DNA from: an uncultured Ectothiorhodospiraceae bacterium
GTDB lineage: Bacteria > Pseudomonadota > Gammaproteobacteria > HK1
Reading direction: 5' to 3'
Assembly (NCBI GenBank): GCA_964605765.1
Contig: CAZSDY010000001.1
Location: 1 to 62,810 of the forward strand
Length of the DNA stretch: 62,810 nt
Shown: piece by piece, positions 4,789-61,432 of the stretch
How positions within the stretch are numbered: the first letter of the stretch is position 1
Layout: the number at the start of each line of letters is the position of its first letter
Translations under genes and position numbers: made by a program
Notes under the pieces: model-generated
The model's database searches: none
Told to the model about the DNA's origin: nothing
The model's input: the letters and a program-made list of their open reading frames with translations, nothing else

Positions 4789-5523
4789 TCACTGGGCTTG
4801 GGGCTCGCCCGCCAGGATACCGCGCAACATACTCAGATCCTCCCATGCCTTGCGCTTCTCGAGCGGTGAACGCAGCAGGTAAGCGGGATGATAGGTCACC
4901 ACGAGCGGCGTGCGTGCCCCGCCGTATTCATGGACGCTGCCCCGCAAGCGCCCGATGGCCACCCCCGTGTCGAGCAGATTCTGCGCGGCGATGCGCCCCA
5001 CGGCAAGTATGGCGCGCGGCCGAACCAGCTCGAGCTGGCGCAGCCAGTGGGCCTCGCAACAGCGGACCTCGTCGGGCCGGGGGTCACGGTTTCGCGGCGG
5101 CCGGCACTTGAGAATGTTGCCGATGTAGACCTGTTCCCTGGCGAGCCCTATCGCGGCGAGCATGGCGTTCAATAGCCGGCCCGCCCGCCCCACGAAGGGC
5201 TCACCGCGCCGGTCCTCCTCGGCGCCGGGCGCCTCTCCGATGACGAAGCACGATGCGCTGCGATCACCGGTCCCGAACACGGTCTGCGTTCGGGATTCGG
5301 CGAGAGCACACGCCCGGCACGACGCCACGCGGGCCTCGAGCGCCGGCCAGTCGAGTTGCGCGACGGGCACCGACCCCTGGAGCCCGTCACCGGGCGTGGG
5401 CGGGTCGGCGCCGGGCGCCGCGTGCGTGTCACGCGGTGTGCGTGCCGGTGCGGCATCGCGAGGCTCCCACACGGGTATCCCCATTGCCTGCAGATAGCGG
5501 TGCTGGCGCGAACTGTATGCCAT
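4789..5523 (-). CDS. uracil-DNA glycosylase, family 4
   Basis: [24 protein letters not shown] motif, N-terminal [11 protein letters not shown]-terminal HPAYLLR. Conserved position upstream of rimI. Confidence 0.88.
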
Positions 5524-5540
5524 GCGATTCCCCGCCCCGT

Positions 5541-7076: not shown

Positions 7077-7450
7077 CGTTTCGCTCCTGCTGTGTCTGAA
7101 TGGCTACGGCTCGCCCAAGCGCGGTGTGTCGCTCCCGGGTTTCGGGCCGGCGCCGTAACCTCGCCGCCACACGCCGGTAGCGCGAGGGTTTCCGCACCTT
7201 GGTCGAGGTGCCGGTTGCTGGGTCGTGGTCCCTGAGGACGTTGTACGGTGGGATATGCGCTGCCTAGGGCAGCAGTCGAAGCGGCAGCAGGCGTGCGAGC
7301 GGTGCGGGCGCACGGGCACCAGCGCACGCGCTCGCTCGGCGGCGTGATACTGGAATACCCGATTGCTCGATCATTGTTTGTGCACGGTCACTGTTGGACG
7401 GCTGAGACTATAGCCTGCTTTGACGGTGATTCCAACCCGGGTTCCGACGC

Positions 7451-8227
7451 TCACTCGCGCTTGGCAAGCTCGTCCCCAGGCGAGGCGTGCTTACGCCTGG
7501 CACGCCGGCGGCGAATCTGCAGGAGCGTCAGCACGGGACCGGATCCGGCATACAGGAAAGTGATCGAAAACAGCACCAGCGGCGGATCGGTGGAGACCAG
7601 CACGAAGACCAGCACAATCAGCAGCAACGCGATGAACGGCACACGCCCGCGCAGATCGAGCTCCTTGAAGCTGTGATAGCGAATGTTGCTGACCATCAGC
7701 GCGCCGGTTGCCACGGTAAGCGCGAGCGCACCGCCCGCCAGATCCTTGCCGCTGAAGCCATAATCGGTGGCCAACCAGAACATGCCCGCCATGACACCGG
7801 CCGCCATGGGGCACGGCAGACCCTGAAAGAATCGCTTGTCCGCGGTGCCGAGCTGCGTATTGAAGCGGGCAAGGCGCAGCGCGGTCGCCGCGGCGTAGAA
7901 GAATGCGACCAGCCAGCCGAGCTTGCCCAGATCCTGCAGCGCCCACAGGAACGCGACCAGGGCCGGTGCGAGCCCGAAAGAAATGACGTCGGACAGACTG
8001 TCGTACTCGCCACCGAATGCACTCTGGGTGTTCGTCATGCGTGCGATTCGCCCATCCGCACCGTCGAGCACCATGGCGATGAAAATCGCCACACCGGCCT
8101 GCGCGAAGCGCCCGCTCATACCCGCCACGATGGCGTAGAAGCCGGCGAACAGGGCGGCGGTCGTGAACAGGTTCGGCAGCAGGTAAATACCGCGTCGCTG
8201 CTTCCTGGCGGGTTGCGAAGTTTCCAT
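7451..8227 (-). CDS. pssA: CDP-diacylglycerol--serine O-phosphatidyltransferase
   Basis: CDP-alcohol phosphatidyltransferase motif DGADGRIARMTNTQSAFGGEYDSLSD. Multi-pass membrane protein. ATG at 8227; the track start at 8242 is GTG. Confidence 0.9.
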   Translation of the reverse strand: METSQPARKQRRGIYLLPNLFTTAALFAGFYAIVAGMSGRFAQAGVAIFIAMVLDGADGRIARMTNTQSAFGGEYDSLSDVISFGLAPALVAFLWALQDLGKLGWLVAFFYAAATALRLARFNTQLGTADKRFFQGLPCPMAAGVMAGMFWLATDYGFSGKDLAGGALALTVATGALMVSNIRYHSFKELDLRGRVPFIALLLIVLVFVLVSTDPPLVLFSITFLYAGSGPVLTLLQIRRRRARRKHASPGDELAKRE

Positions 8228-8291
8228 TGCGTCGAACGGCACCGTGAGTGTACGCGACTAAGTGAATATCATAGCGCCCGCGGCCGGCCGG

Positions 8292-8933
8292 TCAAACCGT
8301 GGGCTGTGCCACCTTGCCTGAATGGCCCGCTGCCGGCGCCTCCCTGACGAGCTTTGCGATAACGTCGGTTGCGCCAAGCACTGCACCCCCGTCGGCGATA
8401 CACGCTCTGGCGCTGGCGGGTACGTAGACATCCACGCGCCGCGCAAAGTAGACGAATCCGTTCCTCTGCCCCTGGCCGATGCGCTCCCCGGGGGCAACAT
8501 CACAACGAAACAGCGCCCGGCGCCGCGTCCTCACGCACATCGCGACATCGTCACCCTCGTCGGTTTGAATCCATATGGCATAGGAACCGCCGCACGCCCC
8601 TGGCGCATCGGCCCAGAAATCCATCACCTTGCCTTCCGTCGGGCTGCGCAATGCTCCGATGCCGAATCGCCGCGGGACGATGCTCATGACCAGTGCTTCG
8701 CGGTTCAGCCACGGATCGAGGCCCGGTGCTACGCTGCGCACGTGCCCGTCTACGGGACTGACGATGCCGAGAGGGGACGGCGGCACGACGCGCAGGGGTT
8801 CGAAGTAGATCCACAACGTAGCCGCCAGAAGCGCCACCAACGGCGCGCTCGCGATCGCCCCCGCCGCATGCCACAGCACCGCGGCACCGACAGCCAGGCC
8901 GAGCACCGGTAGACGTCCCTCGGGCGCGATCAC
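8292..8933 (-). CDS. phosphatidylserine decarboxylase-related protein (short form)
   Basis: 213 aa. Two N-terminal TM helices followed by a Psd-like beta domain. Lies directly upstream of pssA in the same operon. Confidence 0.65.
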   Translation of the reverse strand: MIAPEGRLPVLGLAVGAAVLWHAAGAIASAPLVALLAATLWIYFEPLRVVPPSPLGIVSPVDGHVRSVAPGLDPWLNREALVMSIVPRRFGIGALRSPTEGKVMDFWADAPGACGGSYAIWIQTDEGDDVAMCVRTRRRALFRCDVAPGERIGQGQRNGFVYFARRVDVYVPASARACIADGGAVLGATDVIAKLVREAPAAGHSGKVAQPTV

Positions 8934-8950
8934 CGCCCTGACCTGACCGA

Positions 8951-10018
<1,068 letters not shown>

Positions 10019-10513
10019 TCAGACGTTGAGTGACTTCTCGCCGCGCCCGATCCCGAGGGGACCGGAACGCACGATCTCGAGGATCGACTTGCCGTCAAGC
10101 GCATTGATGAATGCATCGAGCTTCGCCGCCCCACCGGTCAGCTCGATGATGTATGTGCCCTCCGTCACATCCAGGATCCGCCCACGAAAAATGTCGGAGA
10201 GGCGTTTGATCTCCTCGCGCCATGGGCCCGTGGCATGCAGCTTGGCCATCATGATCTCGCGCTTGATGTGCGCTGCCTCGGTAATGTCCTGCAGCTTCAC
10301 GACGTCCACCAGCTTGTTGAGCTGCTTGGTGATCTGCTCGATGATCTCCGGGTCGTCGTCGGCCGTGACCAGCGTCATTCTCGAGATGGTGGGATCCTCG
10401 GTGGGCGCCACGCTCAGCGCCTCGATGTTGTAGCCGCGCGCGGAGAACAGCCCTGCTACGCGGCACAGAGCCCCGGGCTCGTTTTCCATCAGCACGGAGA
10501 TGATGTGCTGCAT
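10019..10513 (-). CDS. ilvH: acetolactate synthase small (regulatory) subunit
   Basis: MQHIISVLMENEPGALCRVAGLFSARGYNIEAL (ACT domain). Its ATG overlaps the ilvI stop by 1 nt (TGATG). Confidence 0.93.
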   Translation of the reverse strand: MQHIISVLMENEPGALCRVAGLFSARGYNIEALSVAPTEDPTISRMTLVTADDDPEIIEQITKQLNKLVDVVKLQDITEAAHIKREIMMAKLHATGPWREEIKRLSDIFRGRILDVTEGTYIIELTGGAAKLDAFINALDGKSILEIVRSGPLGIGRGEKSLNV

Positions 10514-14355: not shown

Positions 14356-16574
<2,219 letters not shown>

Positions 16575-45991: not shown

Positions 45992-46400
45992 GACTGTGTA
46001 AGCTGCTTGGCATTTCTCAGTGCGCCGTCACGGCGGATCGCCAAGTCCAAGGTGCGTGCAGACACAGCCGTGGAGGCCGGGGCGCAGCCGTAGTCGGGGC
46101 TCGGGTGGCGCATCTGCCCGGAGCAGACCGGGACGGGCGCAGGCTGGCTCGAAGAGCGGCGTCCAGGGATGAGGGCCGTAGCGGCAAATCCGCCCGTGGC
46201 TCGGCGAGCGAGGGCCGTGCCAGGTGAACGCCCTGCCACCCTGTTGCGGAATAACGTCCCATTCACGCAGTTCTTTTCCTTTGTCACTCAGTCGGTCAAG
46301 AGATCCGGCCACCGCCCCGGTGAGAGATGCGGGCCAGACGCCTCGTGGCTCCGGAAGGTTCCGGCTCGCCTCTATCATGGCCGGCAGGACGTGTTGTGCA

Positions 46401-46414
46401 TTGACTTAGGTCAA
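46401..46414. promoter_or_regulatory. FNR/DNR-type box TTGAC-TTAG-GTCAA upstream of the Crp/Fnr regulator gene
   Basis: Perfect inverted half-sites, 82 nt upstream of the ATG at 46496. A TAGAAT -10-like hexamer sits at 46457-46462. Confidence 0.6.
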
Positions 46415-46495
46415 ACCCACACCGGCATCGCAAACGTCAACGGCACGGCGCGGGTGATAGAATCAACAGCGTGTCCGGTGTTTCAGGGGGAAGGA

Positions 46496-47206
46496 ATGAC
46501 CGCTGATGAAGCCGTCGAGGTTGGCGATCTGCGCGGGATCCACCTCTTCGCGAGTCTCGATGACTCCCAAATCCGACGGGTTGCCGAGCACATGCGGGTC
46601 GAGCGATTGGCGGACGGCGAGCGCTTGTTCGACTTCGGCGATCCGGCGCGGCGCTTCTACTATCTGCGTAGCGGGATGCTCAAATTGTACCGGCTTTCCC
46701 CTGAGGGCGTGGAGAAGGTCATCTGGTTCGTACGTCCGCGTGAAACCTTCGCCGAAGCGATCATGTTCATGGACAAGGGCGACGCCTATCCGGTGAGCGC
46801 CGAGGCCATCGCGCCGAGCGTGGTGCAGAGCTTCGACAATGCCACCATGCTGGCGATCCTGCGCGAATCCACGAGCTGTTGTTTTCGGGTGATGGCGGCA
46901 ATGAGCCGGCGGCTGCGCCAACAGGTCGAAGAGATCGACCGCCTGACGTTACACAACGCGACCTATCGATTGGCGAATTTCCTGTTGCAGCAGATCCCAC
47001 TGGGCGTATTCGAATCCCCCGAGCTGCTCTTGACCATGCGCAAGCATGACATCGCGTCACGGCTCGGGATTGCGCCGGAGACACTGTCACGCATGCTGGC
47101 ACGGCTCGGCCAGCGGGGGCTGATTCAGGTCGACCGTCAGAACATTGTGTTGCGCGATATCGATGGATTGCGTCGCCTCGTCGATGTGGAGCGTGCGAAA
47201 GCGTAG
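46496..47206 (+). CDS. Crp/Fnr-family transcriptional regulator, DNR/NnrR-type (no FNR Cys cluster)
   Basis: cNMP-binding-like fold (HLFASLDDSQIRRVAEHM...), C-terminal HTH with the E--SR recognition motif (IAPETLSRMLARL), and no N-terminal Cys cluster. ATG at 46496 with a GGGGGAAGG SD. Confidence 0.85.
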   Translation: MTADEAVEVGDLRGIHLFASLDDSQIRRVAEHMRVERLADGERLFDFGDPARRFYYLRSGMLKLYRLSPEGVEKVIWFVRPRETFAEAIMFMDKGDAYPVSAEAIAPSVVQSFDNATMLAILRESTSCCFRVMAAMSRRLRQQVEEIDRLTLHNATYRLANFLLQQIPLGVFESPELLLTMRKHDIASRLGIAPETLSRMLARLGQRGLIQVDRQNIVLRDIDGLRRLVDVERAKA

Positions 47207-47263: not shown

Positions 47264-47449
47264 ATGGATATCGTCCTCTTTACCATTACCGCAATTGCGC
47301 TGTATGCATTTTCGGACTGGGTGGTACGGCGTATCGAGACGGCGCGAGGCGGCGTGATGAAGAATCGTTCACTGGTGTTCTTCGCGATTATCACGCCGTT
47401 GGCTTTACTCAGCTTTGCCCTGATACGCCACCTGCTCGCTTCGGGCTGA
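47264..47449 (+). CDS. small two-TM membrane protein
   Basis: 61 aa. AGGAGAG SD 6 nt upstream of the ATG. Two hydrophobic helices flank RRIETARGGVMKNR. Confidence 0.5.
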   Translation: MDIVLFTITAIALYAFSDWVVRRIETARGGVMKNRSLVFFAIITPLALLSFALIRHLLASG

Positions 47450-47508: not shown

Positions 47509-47593
47509 GGCGGGGAATGCTCGCTTCCCTTTAGATCAGCTCGCCAGGCATGGGCACGCGTCCATGACCGCTTCGGCTCTGGAGGGAAAATTG

Positions 47594-47764
47594 ATGGTGG
47601 ACGAGAAAGAACCGGTCGCCCCGACCGAAGAAGAGCGAATTCCGGTGATGCAGCAGATTCTGGATAACCCGTTTCTGCTGTTGTTTCTGGGGGTCACCAT
47701 ACCAGCGGTGCTGTACGTGATCTGGGGAGTGATAGAAGTCGTGCAGATACCCATCGGGCAATAA
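47594..47764 (+). CDS. small single-TM protein, first gene of the oxidase operon (possible subunit IIa-like accessory subunit)
   Basis: GGAGGG SD 7 nt upstream of the ATG at 47594. 56 aa with one TM helix, FLLLFLGVTIPAVLYVIWGVI. Confidence 0.55.
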   Translation: MVDEKEPVAPTEEERIPVMQQILDNPFLLLFLGVTIPAVLYVIWGVIEVVQIPIGQ

Positions 47765-47784: not shown

Positions 47785-48318
47785 ATGTCTGCAATCTCAC
47801 CGCCGGAAGTACGCGTCTGGTGGCGGACGCCGATTGGTCGCACCGAGCTCGTGTGGATGACGATAGCCTTCCTGTGGGGGCTGTTCATGTTCTTCATGAT
47901 GATCTACTGGCACGGGGCGGGCGGTCAGAATCTTTCCAACGAAGCCTATCGCACCACGCCGGAGCGTTTCGCGGCAAAAACCGACGCGATGATCGAGAAG
48001 TACAAGGTGCGCGAGGAAAACGGTTACCCCGTGGTGCACCCGCCCGCGGGCAGCGACGTGTATATATTCGGCCGGCGCTGGCAGTGGTGGCCGATTCTTG
48101 AACTGGAAAAGGGCAAGAGCTATCGCATCCACCTGACCTCGCTCGACTGGGCGCACGGCTTTTCCCTGCAGCCGGTCAATCTCAACATCCAGGTGCAGCC
48201 GGGCTACGAGATGGTCTTCAAATTGACGCCCACCGAAAGCGGTGAGTTCACCATCGTCTGCAACGAATATTGCGGCATCGGACATCATCTGATGCTCGGC
48301 AAGATCTTCGTCAAGTAG
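47785..48318 (+). CDS. heme-copper oxidase subunit II, single TM plus CuA cupredoxin domain
   Basis: 177 aa, close to ba3 subunit II in size. CuA ligand pattern WAHGF ... CNEYCGIGHHLM (H, CxExCxxxHxxM). Confidence 0.85.
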   Translation: MSAISPPEVRVWWRTPIGRTELVWMTIAFLWGLFMFFMMIYWHGAGGQNLSNEAYRTTPERFAAKTDAMIEKYKVREENGYPVVHPPAGSDVYIFGRRWQWWPILELEKGKSYRIHLTSLDWAHGFSLQPVNLNIQVQPGYEMVFKLTPTESGEFTIVCNEYCGIGHHLMLGKIFVK

Positions 48319-48339: not shown

Positions 48340-50043
48340 ATGGCAAAGCAAGACCAATATCGTATCTGCCCGGCGACCGGGCTGCGCATCTACCGATCGG
48401 CGGAAAATCTCATCAAGGCCAACGCGGTGGTCGCGGTGATCTTTCTGGCGGTCGGCGGCGTGTTCGGGGTCGGGGTGGCCTTGACCCGTTGGCCGGCGGT
48501 GCACATGCTGCCGGCCGACTGGTTCTATCTGGCGCTGACCGCCCATGGCCTGGACATCCTGGTGGTCTGGGTGATTTTCTTCGAGATCGCGATCCTCTAT
48601 TTCGCCTCCGCGGTGCTGCTCAGCTCACGTCTGGCAACGCCCAGGTGGGCTTGGGCGGGCTTCATTCTGATGCTCGTCGGCGCCGCGGTGACGAACTACG
48701 CGGTGCTCCAGGGACAGTCGAGCGTGATGTTCACGTCTTATCCGCCGATGCAAGCCGCGCCGCATTACTATCTCGGCATCGTGCTGTTCGCGGTGGGGGC
48801 GCTGATTGCCTGTTTCGTGTTCTTCGGGACCTTGGTGATCGCGAAAAACGAGCAAACCTACGAGGGATCGGTACCGCTGGTGACCTTCGGTGCGATCACC
48901 GCCGCGATCATCGCGGTGTTCACCATCGCTTCGGGGGCGATCATTCTGATCCCGACCTTCCTGTGGTCGGTGGGACTCGTCAGCCACATCGATCCGGTGA
49001 TGTACAAGGTCGTCTTCTGGGCCTTCGGGCACTCCTCGCAGCAGATCAACGTGGCGGCGCACGTCGCGGTGTGGTATGCAATCGCCGCGATCCTGTTCGG
49101 CGCCAAGCCGCTGTCCGAGAAGGTCAGCCGCGGGGCCTATCTGCTCTACATCCTGTTCCTGCAGCTTGCCAGCGCCCACCACTTGCTGGTCGAGCCGGGG
49201 ATCAGTTCGGCGTGGAAGATCTTCAACACCAGCTACGCCATGTACCTCGCGGTGCTCGGCAGCCTGATCCACGGGATGACGGTGCCCGGCTCGATCGAGG
49301 CCGCGCAGCGGGTGCGCGGATACACCCACGGCATGTTCGAGTGGCTGCGCAAGGCGCCGTGGGGCAATCCGGCCTTTTCCGGCATGTTCCTTTCGCTAGT
49401 TGGCTTCGGCGTGCTCGGCGGCATTACAGGGGTGGTGCTCGGCACTGAGCAGATCAACCTGTTCATGCACAACACGCTATACGTGCCGGGCCATTTCCAC
49501 GGCACCGTGGCGGTCGGGACCACGCTCGCCTTCATGGCGCTTACCTATCTGGTGGTGCCGTTGATCTTCCAGCGCGAGATCATCCTCAAGGGTTGGGCCA
49601 AGTGGCAGCCCTACGTGTTCGGCGCCGGGGTGATCGGGATCTCGGTATTCCAAATGGCCGCCGGGGTGCTCGGGGTGTCGCGCCGCCATTGGGATATCAC
49701 CTTCGCCGACGCACCGCTGCATTTCAGCTACCCTGATTCGGCGATCCTGATGATGAGCCTGAACGGCATCTCCGCGCTGCTCGCGTTTGTCGGCGGCGGC
49801 ATGTTCGTGGTCGTGATTGTGGGCTCGATCCTGTTCGGCAAGAGCACCAAGTCTTCCGAGGCCGCCGAAGAGAAGAAGCCGGGCGTGGCACCGCCGATCG
49901 GATCCGCCGTCGGCCAGTATGGCAGCGCGGGTGTGCACGGCATTCCGGGAACCGCGGTGCTCGTGAGCGTGTTTTTCGTCGCCTTCGTGCTCTACTATTT
50001 CGTCAACTGGAAGTACGTTTCCGAGCTCTGGCTACTGGGCTAG
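48340..50043 (+). CDS. heme-copper oxidase subunit I, B-family-like, lacking the cross-linked Tyr (candidate NO reductase type)
   Basis: 567 aa. His69, His231, His280/281 and His385/387 line up with T. thermophilus ba3 His72, His233, His282/283 and His384/386. Position 235 (ba3 Tyr237) is Gln, in GHSSQQ. Confidence 0.8.
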   Translation: MAKQDQYRICPATGLRIYRSAENLIKANAVVAVIFLAVGGVFGVGVALTRWPAVHMLPADWFYLALTAHGLDILVVWVIFFEIAILYFASAVLLSSRLATPRWAWAGFILMLVGAAVTNYAVLQGQSSVMFTSYPPMQAAPHYYLGIVLFAVGALIACFVFFGTLVIAKNEQTYEGSVPLVTFGAITAAIIAVFTIASGAIILIPTFLWSVGLVSHIDPVMYKVVFWAFGHSSQQINVAAHVAVWYAIAAILFGAKPLSEKVSRGAYLLYILFLQLASAHHLLVEPGISSAWKIFNTSYAMYLAVLGSLIHGMTVPGSIEAAQRVRGYTHGMFEWLRKAPWGNPAFSGMFLSLVGFGVLGGITGVVLGTEQINLFMHNTLYVPGHFHGTVAVGTTLAFMALTYLVVPLIFQREIILKGWAKWQPYVFGAGVIGISVFQMAAGVLGVSRRHWDITFADAPLHFSYPDSAILMMSLNGISALLAFVGGGMFVVVIVGSILFGKSTKSSEAAEEKKPGVAPPIGSAVGQYGSAGVHGIPGTAVLVSVFFVAFVLYYFVNWKYVSELWLLG

Positions 50044-50113: not shown

Positions 50114-50986
50114 ATGAGTGACACGCTGCGAGTGCTGTTTTCGGTGTTCAAGCTGCGCATCGGCTTCGCGATCATGTTGTGCACCTTGGCCGGAATCGCG
50201 ATAGCGCCCGGTGTGGGGCTGCAATCCTGGCAGGTGGCGGTACTGGCATTGGCGGTACTGATGTCTTCGGCGAGCGCCGGGGCCTTCAACCAACTCGTGG
50301 AGCGCGATCTGGACGTGCGCATGCGGCGCACCCGCCAGCGACCTTTCGTAACCGGCCGTTTTCGTGCGGGTTGGCGCTGGTACGCCGTGACTGCTCTGTT
50401 GGTGATCGTCGCGGTAGTGGCGGCGGGGTGGGCGACCAATGCCGTGGCGGCCGTGAACGTGTTGCTCGGCGCCGTGACTTACGGCATCGTCTATACGCTA
50501 TGGCTGAAACGGCGCACCCGTTTGAATATCGTGATCGGTGGGCTGGCCGGGAGTTTCGCGGTCCTCGCGGGAGCCACGGCGGTCGATGCGAACCTGGCGC
50601 CGGCGCCGCTGATCCTGGCGCTGGTGCTGTTCCTGTGGACGCCGCCGCATTTCTGGAGCCTTGCTTTCGCCTACCGCGAGGACTATGCGCGGGCCGGCGT
50701 GCCTATGCTGCCGGTGGTCGTCGGCGAACGCGCCGCGGCGCGCGCGATCTTCGCCCATACGGTGGCCCTGGTCGGGCTGTCGCTGGTACCCGTCGTATTC
50801 GGGGCCGGCTGGATTTATCTGCTCGGTGCCGGCGCCGGAGGCGCGGTGTTCGTGCGGGAAAGCTGGCGGCTGTTGCGGCATCCGTCGACCGTGTTGGCGA
50901 TGAAGAACTTCCATGCCTCCCTGATCCAGCTCGGGGCGTTGCTGGGGGCGACGATCCTCGATGCGTGGTTGATCGCAGGCGAATGA
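50114..50986 (+). CDS. ctaB: protoheme IX farnesyltransferase (heme O synthase)
   Basis: UbiA-family polytopic protein with NQLVERDLDVRMRRTRQRP and WTPPHFWSLA motifs. Confidence 0.88.
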   Translation: MSDTLRVLFSVFKLRIGFAIMLCTLAGIAIAPGVGLQSWQVAVLALAVLMSSASAGAFNQLVERDLDVRMRRTRQRPFVTGRFRAGWRWYAVTALLVIVAVVAAGWATNAVAAVNVLLGAVTYGIVYTLWLKRRTRLNIVIGGLAGSFAVLAGATAVDANLAPAPLILALVLFLWTPPHFWSLAFAYREDYARAGVPMLPVVVGERAAARAIFAHTVALVGLSLVPVVFGAGWIYLLGAGAGGAVFVRESWRLLRHPSTVLAMKNFHASLIQLGALLGATILDAWLIAGE

Positions 50987-51837
50987 TACCGGCGGGCAGA
51001 CCGTGCCGGGTGGCGGTGGGGTTATTGTCACTGGCGCTTGGTGCGCCGGCGCCGGGCGTGGCGGCCGCAACGCCTCATTCGGCGACCGCGTTCGACGCCG
51101 ATCAGGCGCTCGCAGCCAGCCGGGCGACGCTCGGCGTGCGTTTGGGCAGGCACCGCTTCACCACCCGTGATGGCCGCGAGGTCAGCTTGCGGGCGTTGGC
51201 CGCCGGCCGTCCCCTGGTGTTGAGCCTGATCTACACCGGTTGTTATCACGTTTGCAGTGTCTCGACCCGCCATCTGGGTGGTGCGGTGCGGGTGGCACGT
51301 GAAGCGTTGGGGGACACGTTCGCGGTAGCCACGGTGGGATTCGATAGCGCCGCGGATACGCCCGCGCGGATGCGCGCCTACGCGCGCCGGCAAGGCGTTG
51401 CCGACGTGCTGGACTGGGCGTTCTTGAGCGGCGACGCCGCGAACATCGCCGCGCTCGTGAAAGACGTGGGATTCAGTTACTTCCGTTCCCCCAAGGGCTT
51501 CGACCATCTGGTTCAGACGACCGTCGTCGATGCCGAGGGGCGGGTCTACCGGCAGATTTACGGCGATGCATTTCAACCGCCGGCCCTGGTCGAACCACTC
51601 AAGGAGTTGGTGTTCGGCCGCGCGGTAGATGCCTCGGCGGGCTCCGTCGAGGCCTGGACCAATCGCCTGTTGTTGTTCTGTACCCTCTACGACCCGGCAT
51701 CCGGACGCTACCGCTTCGACTACTCGATATTTGTCGGAATCGGGGTGGGGATATTGGTTCTCGGCTCGCTCGGTGGATTCTTGGTGCGCGCCTGGAACGA
51801 GAATCTTCGGCGATCGAGTCATGGCAGCCGGGGTTAG
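50983..51837 (+). CDS. SCO1/SenC-family copper chaperone with a C-terminal TM anchor
   Basis: Signal/anchor, CxxxC motif LIYTGCYHVCS and downstream His (FDHLVQTTVVDAEGRV). ATG at 50983 overlaps the ctaB stop (ATGA). Confidence 0.8.
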   Translation: MIPAGRPCRVAVGLLSLALGAPAPGVAAATPHSATAFDADQALAASRATLGVRLGRHRFTTRDGREVSLRALAAGRPLVLSLIYTGCYHVCSVSTRHLGGAVRVAREALGDTFAVATVGFDSAADTPARMRAYARRQGVADVLDWAFLSGDAANIAALVKDVGFSYFRSPKGFDHLVQTTVVDAEGRVYRQIYGDAFQPPALVEPLKELVFGRAVDASAGSVEAWTNRLLLFCTLYDPASGRYRFDYSIFVGIGVGILVLGSLGGFLVRAWNENLRRSSHGSRG

Positions 51838-51843
51838 CCGCGG

Positions 51844-53433
51844 ATGGCGGTCAACGGCGGCATTGCACGACGCGGATTGGAGCGCGTGGAAAAGGCCTTC
51901 GATGCCGCATTCACGCCTGCTTGGAACCCGCTCAGCCAGCTCGGTGCGCTCGGCTGGTTCTTCTATTGGATCGTCGCGGTCAGCGGGATTTACCTCTACG
52001 TCTTTTTCGACACCGGCATTCATGCGGCCTACGACTCCGTCGAACACTTGACGCACGCGCAGTGGTACGCCGGCGGCGTGATGCGCAGCCTCCATCGCTA
52101 CGCCTCCGACGCGATGGTGGTGGTGATGTTGTTGCACCTGACGCGCGAATTCGTCATGGGGCGCCTGCGGGGTCCGCGCTGGTTCACCTGGCTGGTCGGC
52201 ATCCCGGTGTTATGGGCGGTGTTTGCTTCCGGTATCAGTGGTTACTGGCTGGTGTGGGACCGTTTGGCGCAGTATGTCGCGGTGGCAACCACCGAGTGGC
52301 TCGACGCCTTGCCGCTGTTCGGCCAGCCCATCGCGCACAACTTCCTCCACCAGGGGACCCTCAGCGGGCGCTTTTTCACCCTGATGATTTTTATCCACAT
52401 CGGGGTGCCGCTGTTTCTGTTGTTTCTGATGTGGCTGCACATCAGCCGGCTTTCACACGCCAGGGTGAATCCGCCGCCGGGGCTGGCGCTCGGGAGCCTG
52501 CTGATGCTGGTTGTGGTGGCGCTCTGGCGGCCGGCGCTGAGTCAGGGTCCGGCCGACCTGAACAGCCTCCCGGAGGTGCTGCGCATCGACTGGTTCTATC
52601 TGTTCGCGCTGCCTCTTCAGGACGCCTTTTCGGGCGCCTGGGTGTGGATTGCGGTAGTGGCCGGAAGCTTCGCGTTGATGCTGGCGCCGTGGATGGCGCG
52701 CCGCGTACCGGCGTCGGTGGCGATCGTGAACCTGAACAATTGCAATGGTTGCGGGCGTTGCTGCGCGGACTGCCCTTACGCGGCGGTGAGCTTGCAGCCG
52801 CGCACCGATGGTAGCGCGTACAGCCACGAAGCGGTGGTGCGCGCGGACCTGTGCGCCGCTTGTGGCATGTGTACCGGCGCCTGTCCGACGGCCACGCCGT
52901 TTCGCCGCCGCGGCGAAGTGGTGGCTGGAATCGAACTACCCAACCTCCCGGTGCGCGTATTGCGCGAGCGCGTATTGAAGGCGACGCGCGCGCTGCGCGG
53001 TGATACGCGGGTGTTGATTTTCGGCTGCGAGCGTAGTGCGTCGCTCGCCGTCCTGGACGATCCCGGTATCGCGGTCATGGAGTTGCCGTGTATCGGTATG
53101 TTGCCGCCCGCGTTCATCGATTTCTTGCTCACCCGCCGGCATGTAGACGGGATCGTGCTCGGTGGTTGTCGTGAAGGGAGCTGTTTTCATCGTTTGGGAA
53201 TCGACTGGACGCTGCGGCGGATCGCCGGCGAACGGGACCCCTATCTCAGAGCGCGGGTGCCACGGGAGCGGCTCGTCGCTGCGTTCACGGGGCTGGACGG
53301 GGTGCCCGGGGTGCGCGCCGAGCTGCAAGCGTTGCACGCGCGTTTGCGGGTGCTGGGGGAACTCCGCCGGGTGTCCGGGCAGCGCGCGGATGTGCCGGTG
53401 GTGCAGGCTCAGGCGGAGCGTACCCGTGGCTAA
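51844..53433 (+). CDS. fusion protein: di-heme cytochrome b (bc-type N-terminal domain) + 2x[4Fe-4S] ferredoxin + MvhD/FlpD-like domain
   Basis: Two His pairs, each spaced 14 residues apart (SLHRYASDAMVVVMLLHLTR; FIHIGVPLFLLFLMWLHISR). CNGCGRCCADCP and CAACGMCTGACP. C-terminal FGCERSA...LPCIGMLPPAFIDFLL...GGCREGSCFH. Confidence 0.8.
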   Translation: MAVNGGIARRGLERVEKAFDAAFTPAWNPLSQLGALGWFFYWIVAVSGIYLYVFFDTGIHAAYDSVEHLTHAQWYAGGVMRSLHRYASDAMVVVMLLHLTREFVMGRLRGPRWFTWLVGIPVLWAVFASGISGYWLVWDRLAQYVAVATTEWLDALPLFGQPIAHNFLHQGTLSGRFFTLMIFIHIGVPLFLLFLMWLHISRLSHARVNPPPGLALGSLLMLVVVALWRPALSQGPADLNSLPEVLRIDWFYLFALPLQDAFSGAWVWIAVVAGSFALMLAPWMARRVPASVAIVNLNNCNGCGRCCADCPYAAVSLQPRTDGSAYSHEAVVRADLCAACGMCTGACPTATPFRRRGEVVAGIELPNLPVRVLRERVLKATRALRGDTRVLIFGCERSASLAVLDDPGIAVMELPCIGMLPPAFIDFLLTRRHVDGIVLGGCREGSCFHRLGIDWTLRRIAGERDPYLRARVPRERLVAAFTGLDGVPGVRAELQALHARLRVLGELRRVSGQRADVPVVQAQAERTRG

Positions 53434-54130
53434 GCGTGGCGGCGTGTTGCCCGGGGTGGTTCACGAATCGGGTTTGCGTCCCGCCGCGACTCGCGCGGTG
53501 GCGCAACTGCTTTGCTACATTGCCTTAGGGCTATTGCTCGGCTATTGCTCGGCTACGCCGTACCGCTATGTCGCGCCGGGTGCGGCCGTACTCAAGCTGA
53601 GCTTCGATCATGCCGGAGCGCACGTCACGCCCTGCCGGCGCCGCTCGCCCGCGGAACTGGCGGCTCTCGCGCCGAATATGCGCCAGGTGGCGCAGTGCCC
53701 GCGGGCGCGCGTTGCGGTACGGGTGGAACTCGATCTCGACGGGCGATCATTGTATGGCGCCGATTTGCCGCCCGCCGGGCTCGCCAAGGACGGGGAGTCA
53801 AGCGTCTACCAGCGCTTTACGCTGCGCGCGGGCAAGCATCGGCTGGCCATGCGCCTGCGCGATTCCCGGCGGCGGACGGGATTCGATTACGCGCGCGAAA
53901 TCGCGGTCGAGCTGGCGCCCGGTGGAGTTTTCGTGATCGACTTCAATGCCAAGGCCGGCGGTTTCCAGTTCCCGATCGCCGCACCCTTGCGTAGCGCGCC
54001 GGCGGCAGAGGCCAACCCGGCCGGGGGCATCGACCGGCGAGCGGCCGCACCGCGGCAGGCCGCAATCGACACCCCGGACGCCATGCGCATTGCATTGGCG
54101 CGTGGTCATCGGTCCGACCTTTCGAGATAA
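53426..54130 (+). CDS. hypothetical single-TM protein
   Basis: In the operon, with GTG at 53426 overlapping the preceding stop (other in-frame starts are possible up to about 53444). TM helix AVAQLLCYIALGLLLGYCS, then a beta-rich domain with two Cys and a low-complexity tail. Confidence 0.45.
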   Translation: MAKRGGVLPGVVHESGLRPAATRAVAQLLCYIALGLLLGYCSATPYRYVAPGAAVLKLSFDHAGAHVTPCRRRSPAELAALAPNMRQVAQCPRARVAVRVELDLDGRSLYGADLPPAGLAKDGESSVYQRFTLRAGKHRLAMRLRDSRRRTGFDYAREIAVELAPGGVFVIDFNAKAGGFQFPIAAPLRSAPAAEANPAGGIDRRAAAPRQAAIDTPDAMRIALARGHRSDLSR

Positions 54131-54137
54131 TCCGGAC

Positions 54138-54533
54138 ATGGCTTTGATCGAATGGAAGGATGCATACGCTCTGGGTGTCCCGAGCGTCGACCTGGAACAC
54201 CGTCAACTCATCGACCTGATTAACGAGTTGCACGAGAGCCTGTGCGGTGATCGCGATGAATCGGCGACGATCGTCGAATTTCTCGGTGAGTTGTGTGCTT
54301 GCATCGGCGCGCACTTCGCCCTCGAGGAACGGATGATGCGCACCAGCGGTTACCCGGATTTTTCCGCGCACAAGGCCGATCACGAGCGGTTGCTCGATGA
54401 GCTTCGTGATTTGATGGATGCCTACGAGGATGGATTGTGCTGCGCTCCGGCACCAGTCTCAGCCAGTCTGGATGTCTGGTTCACGGAGCACTTCGGGAGC
54501 CACGACGCCAAACTCCATGGCAAAGTGGGATAA
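54138..54533 (+). CDS. bacteriohemerythrin (hemerythrin-like metal-binding protein)
   Basis: MALIEWKDAYALGVPSVDLEHRQLIDLIN ... HFALEERMM ... HKADHERLL ... WFTEHFGSHD: the full His/Glu/Asp di-iron ligand pattern. Confidence 0.88.
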   Translation: MALIEWKDAYALGVPSVDLEHRQLIDLINELHESLCGDRDESATIVEFLGELCACIGAHFALEERMMRTSGYPDFSAHKADHERLLDELRDLMDAYEDGLCCAPAPVSASLDVWFTEHFGSHDAKLHGKVG

Positions 54534-54756: not shown

Positions 54757-56307
54757 CTAATGGCTGGTGCCGCGCGAACGCGTGATCTTGTTCCAGACAT
54801 TGTACTTGCCGGATGGTTTGACCATCGGGATGCGTTTGACCTCGGTGAGGGTCTGTGCATCGTAGACGACGATGGCGCCGCGCATGTCCCATACGCTGAG
54901 CAGAGCGTAGCGTCCGTCGCGGGTGAACTCGACGTGCGCGGCGGTCTTGCCGGGCGCGGGGCGCAGGGTCTTGACGATCTCGAGGGTTCTCTTGTCGATG
55001 ATCTGTTCGGCATCGCGCTCGGGACCGAAAAACACGTCCACCCACGCGTAGGGCGTGTGTTCATGACTGCGCAAGAAAAACCCCGGCCCCAGCGTTTTGA
55101 TGCGCCGGATGGTCTTCCAGGTGCGCATGTCGATCACGCTCACCACCCCCTCTCTCAGGTTGGGCGTCGCGAGCACCGGGCGGCCTTGATAGTCCCAGGT
55201 GATCCCCGAGCCGAGATGCGGCATCCCCGGCAGGTCGACTTCCGCGATCTTGCGCCCGACCAGCAGGCTCACTACCTGACCGTTGCGGGTATTGCGCGCG
55301 GTGCCGATGAGCGTGTCGTAGCTTTGGTCGAAAAAGAAATCGTCGAGATAGTCGTCGAGCCGGATGCGGCGCACCGGGAAGCGTTCGCTGACCTCGGGTG
55401 CTCCTTCGATGCGGTAGTCGTGGACCGGGCCGTAGTAGACCGGGTCATCGCCGTACTGGATCTCCCAGACCTCCGTCAGGTCCTTCAGCGCGGCGATGAA
55501 ACTCTTGCGTGGCGGAGCATCGTAAACGGCGCTGACACGCGACTCGCGTCCCGCCTCGTCTCGCACCGGGACGACCTCGATCAACGAAAGATCGGTGGCG
55601 TCCAGTATCACCAGGGTGTGCGGCAGGTAGTTGCCGACCATCACGTAGCGCCCATCGCTCGAAACCGCGAGATTGCGGGTGTTGACCCCGGCGCGCACCT
55701 CTGCGACGCGCTCCAATCCCCACAGATCGTATTGTGAGATCCAGCCGTCGCGCGACGCGAAGTACACGAAACGCCCTCGCGGCGAGAATTTCGCGCCGCC
55801 GTGCAGTGCGTAGTGGGATTTGAAGCGCGCCAGCCGCTCGAAACGATCACCGTCCACAATGCTGACGTGATGATCGCCGGATTCCACGACCACGAACAGG
55901 TTAAGCGGATCGGCCGCGTACACGGGATGACGGGGAAGCTCGGCGAGCGGGTGGTAAACGGTGTGGCTCGCGCGGATTTCAGCGTTGCCCCAGGGCGGTA
56001 CCCGAGGTAGCGGGGTGTAGATGAAATCGACCAGCGCGTCGATGGCCGAGGCTGCCAGCTCGGTGCTGAATCCGGGCATCTGGGTTGCCGCAAGGCCGTC
56101 GCGAATCGCCGTGCGGGCAGCCGCGCGTTGGAGCCGTTTGAGATTTTGCGGCAACAACGCCGGGCCGATTCCACCGAGGCGATCGGCCCCGTGACAGCGC
56201 GCGCAATGCCGGGCATAGAGAGCCGGCGTATCGGGCGTTGCCGACACCGCGCCGATGCACAAGGCGGCCTGGAAAAAGAGCAGCGCGGTGGCAGGCAGGC
56301 GCGCCAC
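54757..56307 (-). CDS. nirN: NirN (cytochrome c + d1-type beta-propeller; dihydro-heme d1 dehydrogenase)
   Basis: Signal peptide, CARCHG heme-c motif, then a cd1-like propeller. Last gene after nirJ. GTG start. Confidence 0.82.
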   Translation of the reverse strand: MARLPATALLFFQAALCIGAVSATPDTPALYARHCARCHGADRLGGIGPALLPQNLKRLQRAAARTAIRDGLAATQMPGFSTELAASAIDALVDFIYTPLPRVPPWGNAEIRASHTVYHPLAELPRHPVYAADPLNLFVVVESGDHHVSIVDGDRFERLARFKSHYALHGGAKFSPRGRFVYFASRDGWISQYDLWGLERVAEVRAGVNTRNLAVSSDGRYVMVGNYLPHTLVILDATDLSLIEVVPVRDEAGRESRVSAVYDAPPRKSFIAALKDLTEVWEIQYGDDPVYYGPVHDYRIEGAPEVSERFPVRRIRLDDYLDDFFFDQSYDTLIGTARNTRNGQVVSLLVGRKIAEVDLPGMPHLGSGITWDYQGRPVLATPNLREGVVSVIDMRTWKTIRRIKTLGPGFFLRSHEHTPYAWVDVFFGPERDAEQIIDKRTLEIVKTLRPAPGKTAAHVEFTRDGRYALLSVWDMRGAIVVYDAQTLTEVKRIPMVKPSGKYNVWNKITRSRGTSH

Positions 56308-59924: not shown

Positions 59925-61115
59925 TCACAGGCCGATCCTGTGGGCGCGATCGGTGAAAAAGATCCCGCTCGGACTTTCCGCCGGGAGTGACGACACTCGG
60001 CGATAGCTTCGGGTGTCGTAGACGAGCACCCGGTTGTCGTCGCGCACCGAGACCCAGACCTGTTCGCCGCGAGGCGCGAACTCCATGTGCAGCACCGCCT
60101 TGCCGGGTTTGAGAGTCCGCTCGACACGCAGACTTTCGACATCGATGACCTGGATCGTGTCGTTGAGCGGATGCGCGAAGTTGACCCACACCTTGCGTCC
60201 GTCCGGCCGGGCCATGACGAACACCGGTTGTCCGTGCACCGCGATATGCGCCCGGATGCTCCAGTCACGCCGATTCACCACCAGCACCTGGTGATGGCCG
60301 ACCGCCGGCACGAGCGCGTAGTCACCGGCTATCGCCCAGCCTTCCAGATGCGGCATCTTGTAGACCGGCAACGCCCGTTCACCGCGCCCATAGCCATCGA
60401 GAATGCGACGCACACCGCGCTCGAGATGCCACAAATCGAGCAACGCCATCCCGTCTTCGCCGAACAGCCCGGCGACGTAGTAGCGTCCGTCGGGCGTGAT
60501 CAGCCCATCATACGGGAGGCGTCCGACGTTTTCGAAGCGGCGTACCTCGGGCCGGGCCGGGTCCTGCATGTTCAGCACCCAGATCTCCCCGGCATCGTAG
60601 AGGCTGAACACGAAAAGCTGACCCGGCGCATCCACCAGTCCGACCACCTTGGAACGTTTGCCCTCGTTGCCGTAAGTCGCCGGAATCTCCGCCACCAGTC
60701 GCAGCGTGTCGGCGGCGAACACCTTGACCCCTCCGGGAACGTAGTTCGAGACCGCCACCAGCGACCCGTCCTGCGATATCGCGCCGCCGATGGCGTTGCC
60801 TCCCTGCACCACGCGGCGCGCAATGGCGCCACTCAACATATCGATCTTGGTGAGCCCACCGTCACGCCCGAACACGTAGGCATAGCGCTCGTCACGCGAA
60901 TACACCACCGTCGCGTGCGACAGATCGCCGAGCCCGTCCACCTGGGCGAGTTCCGTGCGGTGGCTGGTATCGACAATCAACACCCGCCCCGCCGTACGTT
61001 CAATGACGATCCCGAGATCACCGGTCCCGCGCAGCGTGGCACAGCCGCCAAGCACGAGGCCCGGCAGCAGCACGCCCGCGCACCAGAATCGCGAATAACG
61101 CCCGCTGTTTCTCAT
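59925..61115 (-). CDS. nirF: NirF (d1-type propeller heme d1 biosynthesis protein), lipoprotein form
   Basis: ATG at 61115 overlaps the nirC stop (ATGA). Lipobox LVLGGC. cd1-like beta-propeller without a heme-c motif. Confidence 0.85.
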   Translation of the reverse strand: MRNSGRYSRFWCAGVLLPGLVLGGCATLRGTGDLGIVIERTAGRVLIVDTSHRTELAQVDGLGDLSHATVVYSRDERYAYVFGRDGGLTKIDMLSGAIARRVVQGGNAIGGAISQDGSLVAVSNYVPGGVKVFAADTLRLVAEIPATYGNEGKRSKVVGLVDAPGQLFVFSLYDAGEIWVLNMQDPARPEVRRFENVGRLPYDGLITPDGRYYVAGLFGEDGMALLDLWHLERGVRRILDGYGRGERALPVYKMPHLEGWAIAGDYALVPAVGHHQVLVVNRRDWSIRAHIAVHGQPVFVMARPDGRKVWVNFAHPLNDTIQVIDVESLRVERTLKPGKAVLHMEFAPRGEQVWVSVRDDNRVLVYDTRSYRRVSSLPAESPSGIFFTDRAHRIGL

Positions 61116-61432
61116 CGCGGGTCCTCCGCGCCGCTCAGCATGCGTGCAACGAGCCAGCGAATCTCTTCGGTCGAGAGAAGATTCTTCCACGGTGGCATAG
61201 GGGTTCCCGGTCGTCCTTCCGCGATGATGGTCTCGACCTGGATCGCACTCTTTGCGGCGAGTGCCGCGGAGGTCAGGGCCGGACCCAGCCCGCCGGTCAG
61301 GCGGTTGCCGTGGCAAGCGCCGCAGTCCTGATGCAGCAGGTTGCTGAGTTCCGCGCGGCGCGCCGCGCTCAATCCGCTCGCGGCTGCCAGCGCCGGCAGG
61401 ACAAGCATGATGAGCCCGATCGAGCATCGCAT
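61112..61432 (-). CDS. nirC: cytochrome c55X NirC
   Basis: Signal peptide, CGACHG motif, PMPPW Met-ligand region. 106 aa. Confidence 0.85.
   Translation of the reverse strand: MRCSIGLIMLVLPALAAASGLSAARRAELSNLLHQDCGACHGNRLTGGLGPALTSAALAAKSAIQVETIIAEGRPGTPMPPWKNLLSTEEIRWLVARMLSGAEDPR

Follow-up and report, generated by a model that had tools for sequence, protein, structure and literature searches.

We analysed a stretch of 62,810 nucleotides from an uncultured Ectothiorhodospiraceae bacterium (assembly GCA_964605765.1, contig CAZSDY010000001.1, positions 1 to 62,810 of the forward strand; hereafter the window) and found that one of its genes, here called cytbFeS, encodes a genuine fusion of a bc-type cytochrome b, a ferredoxin-like iron-sulfur (Fe-S) domain and a domain resembling MvhD. 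The gene is strictly co-inherited with the genes for both subunits of a heme-copper enzyme, which we file as an eNOR-type nitric oxide (NO) reductase, and with those for a SenC-family protein and a further protein, OrfX. The explanation that we favour, though only tentatively, is that the fusion protein is the membrane electron-transfer part of a SenC/cytb-FeS-MvhD/OrfX module which, in the manner of NosR or the NOX reductases, would bring cytoplasmic electrons to the periplasmic face for the benefit of eNOR and SenC.

A genuine three-domain fusion

An initial annotation, made from the DNA letters, had described a tripartite protein at this locus, and Pfam, NCBIfam, PDB profile and fold searches agree on that architecture (domain boundaries in Table 1). 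In Pfam, Cytochrome_B (PF00033) matched residues 32–203 (E = 2.3e-17, 63.9 bits), Fer4_7 (PF12838) residues 299–350 (E = 1.6e-7, 32.1 bits) and FlpD (PF02662) residues 407–505 (E = 5.5e-6, 26.8 bits), the respective gathering cut-offs being 27.2, 27 and 22.3 bits; PF13631 was also above threshold (47 bits against 27), and the FlpD score reached 77.8 bits in relatives of the protein. A PDB search retrieved solved cytochrome b6 with an E-value of 4.7e-17, or 1.4e-22 when the family profile was used as the query. The membrane part contains the two histidine pairs that had been noted before, H84/H98 and H185/H199, each with an exact i/i+14 spacing (13 intervening residues) and flanked by arginines in the bc1 manner (R81-x2-H84, H98-x2-R101 and H199-x2-R202). 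Their spacing is of the bc1 type, and helix D needs a one-residue gap when aligned with cytochrome b6. H84/H185 are predicted to ligate a heme on the p (periplasmic) side of the membrane and H98/H199 a heme on the n (cytoplasmic) side.

Both Fe-S motifs reported in the initial annotation are present. The first, CNGCGRCCADCP, supplies C300, C303, C306 and C310 followed by Pro (CxxCxxCxxxCP), and the second, CAACGMCTGACP, supplies C337, C340, C343 and C347 in the same pattern, again followed by Pro. This part resembles the HdrA/FwdF/FwdG/MvhB-type ferredoxin domains of solved structures. The Cys-containing domain behind it, likened earlier to MvhD, matches MvhD in profile and in fold: the family profile found MvhD chains at E-values of 1.5e-12 to 2.7e-10, and MvhD chains were the best structural matches of the AlphaFold model in Foldseek (TM-score 0.72–0.76, normalised to the target). 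The full-length model, with a mean predicted local distance difference test (pLDDT) score of 62.6, was used solely to confirm this fold. The domain holds four cysteines, C395, C416, C442 and C447, the last three of which align with cysteines of the solved MvhD chains, while C395 lies outside the aligned stretch.

Conservation was followed in a close set of 30 homologues (55–77% identity) and in a wide set of the 150 best representatives, with identity down to 26%. In the close set no substitution occurs at the four His, the eight ferredoxin Cys or the four Cys of the MvhD-like domain, and the four heme His are at least 90% conserved in the wide one. Because the His and Cys ligands are so conserved, a chance pattern or a frameshift fusion can be excluded, and we conclude that the cytochrome b, Fe-S and MvhD-like fusion is genuine.

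A bc-type membrane module with a Qo-like pocket and no Qi site

Helices A–D of the protein aligned with true bc1 cytochrome b at E = 3.5e-19 (Alteromonas petB, from a petABC locus, L130, used as a contrast), and the family profile could be aligned with mitochondrial cytochrome b up to profile positions 286–300. The two or so transmembrane helices that had been predicted after helix D correspond to helices E and F of bc1. In this region a weak collinear second segment of the hidden Markov model (HMM) alignment (2.6 bits) placed LDWFY opposite P(V/E)WYF and matched the "LPWL" that ends helix F with its bc1 counterpart; neither a single-sequence PDB search with the ef loop as query nor hhalign against true bc1 cytochrome b reached the PEWY region. 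The collinear alignment of helices A–D plus E–F thus indicates that the membrane part consists of bc-type helices A–F without G–H, and the Pfam model of the C-terminal domain, PF00032, found no match in the target. NCBIfam added a weak ExtQ-like match at residues 219–293.

On the p side, two motifs are conserved: GYW-x2-WD (GYWLVWD in the target), which is the cd1 equivalent, and LDWFY, which stands where PEWY is. D249, W250 and Y252 are invariant in the 30 homologues, and D139 and D249 are each at least 90% conserved in the 150 representatives. On the n side, the alignments inspected lack the bc1 Qi residues (bovine His201, Ser205 and Asp228): the position five residues past the n-side heme ligand, a His in bc1, is an unconserved Ser, Thr or Arg, and helix E starts without Asp-Lys. 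Since the Qi residues are absent, the n-side heme would have no quinone partner. The neighbourhood was read in the window and in related loci, and neither the nine operon genes nor the conserved neighbours include a Rieske protein or a cytochrome c1/f. The earlier description of the cytochrome as quinol-binding thus gains only half its support: a Qo-like LDWFY/GYW-x2-WD pocket is conserved, but the Qi residues are absent and no Rieske protein is encoded. Lacking the C-terminal domain, the Rieske/c1 partner and the Qi site, the protein does not qualify functionally as a bc1/b6f cytochrome b; as far as sequence tells, it is a naturally occurring bc-type cytochrome b that has neither a Rieske partner nor a Qi site.

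Several consistent lines place the Fe-S and MvhD domains in the cytoplasm. Read from the sequence, the predicted n-side loops contain 12 Arg/Lys residues and the p side 4; the linker between helix F and the first cluster Cys is only ~16 residues long; and in fused relatives a single helix comes after the MvhD domain, with a beta-sandwich behind it that has an invariant Cys pair. From these features we infer an N-in/C-in topology with cytoplasmic Fe-S and MvhD domains, the side that the initial annotation had presumed. Ligands for seven redox centres would then run from the cytoplasm to the p side.

Co-inheritance with a heme-copper enzyme, SenC and OrfX

More than 4,800 proteins matched in a collection clustered at 90% identity, and the best 120 all had the same architecture. 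In species-representative genomes 541 stretches encode a relative, the matches spanning Gamma-, Alpha- and Betaproteobacteria, and clustering of the family at 50% identity gave 502 clusters at E ≤ 1e-30. For synteny we used the 80 best loci, which come from gamma- and alphaproteobacterial metagenome-assembled genomes with Sulfuricaulis, Woeseiaceae, Acidiferrobacterales, Rhodospirillales and Hyphomicrobiales among the hosts, and in which gene counts are limited by how far the contigs reach. Wherever the contig reaches, the order cox2–cox1–(ctaB)–senC–cytbFeS–orfX–hemerythrin is kept in all 80. SenC is present in 79–80 loci, orfX in 79, hemerythrin in 77, cox1 in 69–71 and ctaB, at its position, in 44; the SenC gene lies immediately 5′ of the cytbFeS homologue in 79–80 of the 80. 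More than 20 metagenome loci showed this order too, as did a plasmid from a cultured Defluviimonas on which the genes bear only generic names; in look-ups, cluster members were named only "hydrogenase iron-sulfur subunit" or "cytochrome b N-terminal domain-containing protein". The link to a CuA-containing enzyme with a Tyr-less subunit I, first suggested from the window, was thus found in 80 of 80 loci as far as sequence reaches, so that the refuting condition set beforehand, unrelated neighbours in place of this enzyme type, did not hold. We conclude that cytbFeS is strictly co-inherited with eNOR I/II, SenC and OrfX.

Outside this core, nirS lies within 8 kb in 21–25 of the 80 loci and CtaA within the same distance in 17; other recurrent neighbours are NosR/NirI-like genes (13), NnrS (12), SUMT (11) and Crp/FNR regulators (17–18). 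One locus, L007 (CAWKAE010000009.1), is labelled as an uncultured Halobacteria archaeon and holds a cluster that shares 57–72% identity and its gene order with the proteobacterial cluster; it is more likely to be mis-binned or mislabelled than to be archaeal.

The neighbouring enzyme carries the signature of eNOR

The closest solved relatives of subunit I are the B-family ba3 oxidases (E ~1e-42). Where ba3 has G-H233-P-I-V-Y237, subunit I has G-H231-S-S-Q-Q235, so that the Tyr is replaced by Gln, and both GHSSQQ(I/V)N and the six metal- and heme-binding His are invariant in 65–68 subunit I orthologues. Residues Y246, S308 and T/S314, which resemble a K channel, align with ba3 Y248, S309 and T315. 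Subunit II gave weak matches to the COX2, CoxB and NosZ C-terminal HMMs, and its CuA ligands, H124 and C159-x-E161-x-C163-x3-H167-x2-M170, occupy six positions that are invariant in 64 orthologues. Four places past the His, the scheme of Hemp and Gennis has Tyr for O2 reductases, Glu for cNOR/qNOR, Asn for sNOR/bNOR and Gln for eNOR (PMC8756737, Table A4). As the residue here is Gln and the composition of the operon matches that of the eNOR operon of Ferrigenium (10.64898/2026.01.22.701106), we file the enzyme, by its sequence signature, as an eNOR-type NO reductase; the invariant N237, two residues past Q235, leaves a small doubt on this assignment. Biochemically, eNOR reduces NO and not O2, and it contains heme As in both sites (PMC11214002). 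The initial annotation had spoken of an oxidase operon: the operon context is right, but an enzyme with the NO-reductase signature of eNOR, encoded beside nirS, would not be an O2 reductase. An sNOR, as in the norSY-senC-orf1 cluster of ammonia oxidisers, was considered and dropped, the residue at the Tyr position being Gln and not Asn and the operon composition being that of the published eNOR operon.

Subunit I has further invariant polar residues near its active site, N237 and H311 (at the place of ba3 T312), and H241 is found in 57 of 65 orthologues, with Gln in 7. N237, H311 and H241 might affect FeB ligation or proton delivery.

OrfX, SenC and variants of the fusion

In its AlphaFold model (pLDDT 92.4), OrfX consists of one transmembrane helix and a periplasmic beta-sandwich with an invariant Cys pair, C64/C85; E71, N78-M79-R80, R87, R89, E95 and Y122 are invariant as well. 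It belongs to no Pfam or NCBIfam family, and Foldseek returned only generic Ig-like, CARDB and CBM matches. We rejected OrfX as a substitute for a Rieske protein, a cupredoxin or PCuAC: no motif and no family match was found, and the fold matches were generic beta-sandwiches only. The Ferrigenium preprint (10.64898/2026.01.22.701106) mentions an "eNOR scaffold protein of unknown function", with which OrfX is probably identical. Among the 150 best representatives, in which architecture variants were counted, at least 53 (about one third) carry orfX fused to the C-terminus of the target homologue, giving proteins of ~650–750 amino acids (aa), for example a 725-aa open reading frame (ORF) at 7899–10076 of locus L059. 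Because so many representatives carry it fused, the separate orfX of the window is to be read as split, and the window holds the split version of a protein that is mostly four-part: in the commonest form of this large family, a periplasmic domain, OrfX, is the fourth.

Rarer variants exchange the cytoplasmic part or add to it. Two of the 150 representatives have a Fer2-FAD-NAD module where the Fe-S/MvhD part would be (the Ferrigenium type), and one has a flavodoxin-FAD-NAD module instead; the latter, known from one metagenome contig, is an anecdote rather than a class, and its gene lies 4 kb from a canonical cytbFeS–orfX pair, with its own SenC gene directly 5′. In one or two, a heme-copper-oxidase-like domain is attached, and this fusion forms 17 clusters (741–768 aa, 77–83% identity), that is, one narrow clade. 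In the betaproteobacterial operons (L131 and L132) the order is small ORF, COX2, COX1, UbiA, SCO1, cytb-Fer2-FAD-NAD, orfX, cytb(-Fer4)-heme-copper-oxidase-like and CtaA, the last directly 3′ of the cytochrome b genes in L132; Pfam matched no hemerythrin in these two operons.

The betaproteobacterial eNOR operons also encode a second heme-copper-oxidase-like protein of ~450–480 aa, annotated as "cbb3-type subunit I" (L131 8001–10295; L132 8001–11036; P0284, P0438–P0453 and P0457–P0556). It has the motifs FWGGGHVLQF and IPAHYHG, the residue four places past its His is neither Tyr, Glu, Gln nor Asn, and one clade has the protein joined to the cytochrome b module. Two further proteins were set aside. 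P0274, a SenC–cytochrome b fusion, had been considered as Rosetta-stone evidence, but it has no helix between its parts, occurs in one representative and is probably a gene-call artefact; P0456 (1011 aa) looks frameshifted.

The SenC protein of the operon has an N-terminal anchor, a CxxxC plus His copper site and the conserved motif LFCTxYDPxxGRYxFDYS, which is followed by a second transmembrane helix at the C-terminus. With C-x3-C lacking Pro and Asp (TGCYHVCS here), it represents a divergent Sco subfamily. Canonical Sco genes (CPDICP) occur apart from it near some loci (L059 10538–11188; L081 4107–4805). The eNOR cluster of L083 holds two cytochrome b paralogues and, at 4367–7107, three ORFs (294, 229 and 361 aa) with no Pfam match between orfX and a second SenC gene.

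Re-annotation of the window

The operon comprises nine genes, for two small membrane proteins, eNOR II, eNOR I, heme O synthase, SenC, the target, OrfX and hemerythrin, with intergenic gaps of −7 to 114 nucleotides (nt) (Table 1). Three of the predicted ORFs required correction, among them that of the Crp/FNR regulator, which is over-extended and really starts at about 46496. The 552-aa "SenC" ORF at 50179–51837 is a chimera whose first ~267 codons are an Arg/Gly-rich alternative frame over ctaB, and the hemerythrin ORF at 53946–54533 is too long, its N-terminus being an Arg/Gly-rich read-through ahead of the real start at 54138.

Table 1. Positions of the fusion gene, its domains and the surrounding features in the window.
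Feature	Positions	Strand	Remarks
Crp/FNR-family regulator	46496–47206	+	likely start ~Met110 of ORF 46169–47206; Pfam cNMP_binding and HTH_Crp_2; NCBIfam FtrB/Fnr/FixK-like
Small membrane ORF s61	47264–47449	+	61 aa; two hydrophobic stretches; found by tblastn in 44/80 loci
Small membrane ORF s66	47564–47764	+	66 aa; one helix; in 62/80 loci; 20 nt 5′ of subunit II
Putative eNOR II (heme-copper subunit II)	47785–48318	+	one helix and a cupredoxin domain with full CuA site
Putative eNOR I (heme-copper subunit I)	48340–50043	+	Tyr-less; Pfam COX1, E = 1.5e-63
ctaB/cyoE, heme O synthase	50114–50986	+	290 aa; UbiA, E = 8e-51; TIGR01473, E = 2e-75, above cut-off
SenC/Sco-family protein	~50980–51837	+	285 aa; Pfam SCO1-SenC; 6-nt gap to cytbFeS
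cytbFeS (target)	51844–53433	+	ATG start; 529 aa
cytbFeS, cytochrome b module	51844–52713	+	residues 1–290; six helices, A–F; bc type
cytbFeS, ferredoxin-like domain	52723–52899	+	residues 294–352; two [4Fe-4S] motifs
cytbFeS, MvhD/FlpD-like domain	52996–53358	+	residues 385–505; four invariant Cys; presumed [2Fe-2S] site
orfX	~53444–54130	+	approximate start codon; found by tblastx
Bacteriohemerythrin	54138–54533	+	131 aa; Pfam Hemerythrin and NCBIfam above cut-off; complete di-iron ligand set, His/Glu/Asp conserved
NirS, cytochrome cd1 nitrite reductase	54757–56307	−	convergent with the operon
nirJ, nirD/L/G/H-like genes, second d1-domain protein	beyond nirS, up to ~61427		

Small genes are also called at the position of s66 in L081, L082, L131 and L132, and s61 and s66 may be additional small subunits, as IIa is in ba3 oxidase. 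The second cytochrome d1-domain protein (NirN/NirF-like, 500 aa) lies at 59925–61427 and, with two NirD/L-type siroheme decarboxylase genes, completes a heme d1 biosynthesis set beside the operon. Scans for promoters, terminators and FNR boxes gave nothing beyond chance, and no FNR box with one mismatch or fewer was found.

The remainder of the window holds housekeeping genes. Three ORFs with high G+C content at third codon positions (14356–15945, 27209–29263 and 29317–31437; 529, 684 and 706 aa) gave no Pfam domain at E ≤ 1e-5. The 684- and 706-aa ORFs adjoin positions 24001–26000, with a markedly lower G+C content (0.55 against 0.64), and a family-2 glycosyltransferase gene, which suggests a variable surface or island region.

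Direction of electron flow

In the explanation that we favour, electrons would enter from a cytoplasmic donor encoded outside the operon, travel by way of the MvhD cluster, the two [4Fe-4S] clusters and the n-side heme to the p-side heme, and leave at the acidic p-side pocket (D139, LD249WFY) beneath the periplasmic parts of SenC and OrfX. At that point they would keep the copper/thiol centre of SenC and the CuA and active sites of eNOR reduced, or feed eNOR turnover directly, so that the protein would act as NosR does for nitrous oxide (N2O) reductase, CcoG for cbb3 oxidase, or the NOX/FRE reductases, on the basis of a bc-type cytochrome b. Since b hemes are far less reducing than ferredoxin-type clusters or NAD(P)H, and the membrane potential favours electron flow from the n to the p side, this is the easy direction. 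The OrfX fusions and the heme-copper-oxidase-like fusions inside eNOR operons support this explanation, as does the replacement of the Fe-S/MvhD part by flavin-NAD modules in rare relatives; in characterised systems, Fer2-FAD-NAD and flavodoxin-FAD-NAD modules usually oxidise NAD(P)H. The invariant cofactor ligands, the N-in/C-in topology, the kept gene order and the missing Qi residues also speak for it. In addition, the cytochrome b/[Fe-S] proteins of the Ferrigenium eNOR operon were found in the proteome under denitrifying conditions (10.64898/2026.01.22.701106).

A number of observations weigh against this explanation. Its weakest point is that no gene for a cytoplasmic donor lies in the operon or the window; likewise, no gene for an HdrA-type flavoprotein, HdrBC or Mvh hydrogenase was found in the window or among the recurrent neighbours, and MvhD normally docks on HdrA-type flavoproteins. 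The Qo-like GYW-x2-WD and LDWFY motifs are strongly conserved, as expected for a quinol or quinone substrate. Neither sequence nor fold search revealed an evident redox cofactor in OrfX that could bridge the p-side heme to CuA, and with its CuA ligands invariant, eNOR can draw electrons from the periplasm without the target. FNR- and CPR-like modules are reversible, as in plant FNR and pyruvate:NADP+ oxidoreductase, so that the flavin variants leave the direction unfixed. The membrane part of the AlphaFold model is poor (pLDDT ~50–60), and the purified eNOR of R. marinus was described without mention of such a component (PMC11214002).

The Qo-like pocket and the ancestry of the MvhD domain are better accounted for if the protein is a Rieske-less, bc-like quinol bifurcase, a proposal that we consider unlikely on balance. 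One electron would pass through the SenC copper or CuA to eNOR and NO, and the other through the hemes, the Fe-S clusters and MvhD to ferredoxin or, in the flavin-fused relatives, NAD(P)+ as the low-potential acceptor in the cytoplasm, so that NO reduction would drive reverse electron flow; this is essentially the Ferrigenium proposal, published as a hypothesis (10.64898/2026.01.22.701106). The Qo-like motifs, including D139 and D249, are conserved across the family at the level given above; with no Qi site, low-potential electrons would need another exit; MvhD and HdrA-type ferredoxin domains originate in bifurcating complexes; and SenC, which always adjoins the target, could stand where the Rieske head does. 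Many hosts (Sulfuricaulis, Acidiferrobacterales) resemble chemolithoautotrophs, but many others are ordinary heterotrophic Alphaproteobacteria. Moreover, the reaction is strongly uphill, from ~+90 mV to the level of ferredoxin or NAD(P)H and against the membrane potential; it needs a very-high-potential one-electron acceptor at the pocket, a role for which Sco-type copper is without precedent; and no acceptor enzyme is encoded nearby in the window. That the very oxidising NO/N2O couple pulls one electron through SenC/CuA while the other yields low-potential cytoplasmic reductant, a quinone-based bifurcation tied to denitrification and so a new way of driving reverse electron flow, strikes us as distinctly unlikely. 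The conserved pocket would also suit a dedicated quinol dehydrogenase for eNOR, a decidedly improbable alternative in which the protein would replace bc1 and cytochrome c, the p-side pocket feeding eNOR laterally or via SenC/CuA, and the Fe-S/MvhD part serving as an overflow sink or as a loop to a cytoplasmic oxidant such as oxidised hemerythrin. Redox loops of the NarI type show that the principle works, the hemerythrin gene is co-inherited (77 of 80 loci), and 17 clusters join the cytochrome b module to a heme-copper-oxidase-like protein without any cytoplasmic redox domain. That fusion, however, is confined to the narrow clade described above, and the betaproteobacterial operons are without hemerythrin by Pfam; in the absence of a Rieske-type acceptor both electrons would have to cross the low-potential b hemes, and twelve invariant cluster Cys imply a central Fe-S chain and not an overflow.

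The composition of the operon bears on two further possibilities. The protein might be a reductase for heme biogenesis that lifts cytoplasmic electrons to the p-side level for heme A synthase, CtaA, a role that we regard as very improbable. We know of no electron donor of bacterial CtaA, and eukaryotic Cox15 depends on ferredoxin and ferredoxin reductase; the partner modules of the family (ferredoxin, FNR-like and CPR-like) are of classes that serve monooxygenases. CtaB is encoded in the operon in 44 of the 80 loci and CtaA within 8 kb in 17; in L132 the CtaA gene comes straight after those for cytochrome b; and both heme sites of eNOR contain heme As (PMC11214002), for which the product of CtaA is required. 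On the other side, CtaA is missing from most loci, where SenC and OrfX are always present, and no direct link between the target and CtaA proteins was seen. The idea that the target replaces heme A synthase is disfavoured, the two co-occurring in 17 of the 80 loci. We give least credence to a sensor, in which NO- and O2-labile Fe-S clusters and hemerythrin would report cytoplasmic NO or O2 or the state of the quinone pool and gate the activity or expression of eNOR: the cluster contains or adjoins a hemerythrin gene and sometimes one for a Crp/FNR regulator, some loci have NnrS and GGDEF-EAL genes nearby, and SenC/PrrC relatives have been called sensors in the literature, but the protein has no output domain, a regulator is present in only 17–18 of the 80 loci, and a transmembrane electron wire of seven centres far exceeds what sensing needs. 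All three roles offered in the initial annotation, electron input, electron sink and sensing, thus keep some probability, and the evidence leans to input.

Significance

Outside the Ferrigenium work, eNOR has been described as an enzyme of two subunits that uses periplasmic electrons and has a proton channel, and eNOR-type enzymes are reported to be among the commonest environmental NO reductases, producing the greenhouse gas N2O (PMC11214002). A large fraction of eNOR operons carry, as we find, a conserved transmembrane electron wire together with SenC, OrfX and hemerythrin. If this wire feeds eNOR or its copper centres, the energy yield of NO reduction and the list of genes needed for an active enzyme both change; if it runs the opposite way, it would represent quinone-based bifurcation in a new form. 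The protein is thus a testable handle on the supply and maturation of NO reductases derived from the B family.

Each of its domains belongs to a known family, and genes of this kind were partly anticipated by the Ferrigenium preprint of May 2026, which was all that searches for the fusion in the available literature returned. What we add is how widespread and strict the association is, together with the MvhD domain, the finding that OrfX can form a fourth domain, the special subfamily of SenC, the presence of hemerythrin, the conserved Qo-like and lost Qi features, and the variety of fused partners.

Comparison with known systems

With the cytochrome b of bc1/b6f complexes the target shares helices A–D, the four His in bc1 spacing with flanking Arg, the GY-x3-W of the cd helix and a collinear E/ef-loop/F region, in which a weak alignment sets LDWFY at the place of PEWY; it differs in having no helices G–H (PF00032), no Rieske protein or cytochrome c1/f and no Qi site, and in its cytoplasmic Fe-S extension. 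Residues 287–481 match the ferredoxin-plus-MvhD end of HdrA2 (NCBIfam, E = 7e-10), with the MvhD fold kept and three of its Cys aligned, but the module is here tethered to a membrane cytochrome. NarI, HdrE, QmoC and DsrM embody the same principle, two hemes that span the membrane to connect a quinone site on the p side with Fe-S clusters in the cytoplasm, and QmoC is likewise a cytochrome b/Fe-S fusion. These proteins, however, have the NarI-type fold, pass electrons from quinol to a known cytoplasmic reductase, and none is tied to a heme-copper enzyme; for the target a NarI/HdrE-type fold is unsupported, as only bc-type models matched in Pfam, NCBIfam and the PDB.

NosR, NapH and CcoG, and the NOX/FRE reductases, are accessory membrane proteins that use two cytoplasmic [4Fe-4S] clusters or an NAD(P)H-flavin module in the service of periplasmic or extracellular Cu or Fe centres, CcoG being the cupric reductase for cbb3 assembly. 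The target would resemble them in this respect but shows no sequence kinship beyond the ferredoxin motifs (NapH, E = 2.7e-4, far below the cut-off), and its membrane part is of bc type. For the Rieske/cytochrome b complexes of anammox bacteria, which have NAD(P)-linked subunits, bifurcation has been hypothesised. The shared idea is that electrons of the n-side heme exit to a cytoplasmic Fe-S/flavin subunit and not to a Qi site; the anammox complexes differ in keeping the Rieske protein, in being multi-subunit and in having no link to a heme-copper NO reductase.

The eNOR operon of Ferrigenium straubiae (10.64898/2026.01.22.701106) comprises eNOR II, eNOR I, heme o synthase, sco1, a "scaffold protein" and a gene for cytochrome b plus [Fe-S], and the present operon was matched with it by that description; betaproteobacterial counterparts of the Ferrigenium locus were found in L131 and L132. 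The preprint calls the genes "rather unusual" and lays its stress on the FAD/NADH-fused paralogue as a quinol:NAD+ oxidoreductase. By contrast, the Fe-S/MvhD form is here the dominant and widespread one, with an MvhD domain, usually with OrfX and hemerythrin, and without the NADH-linked paralogue.

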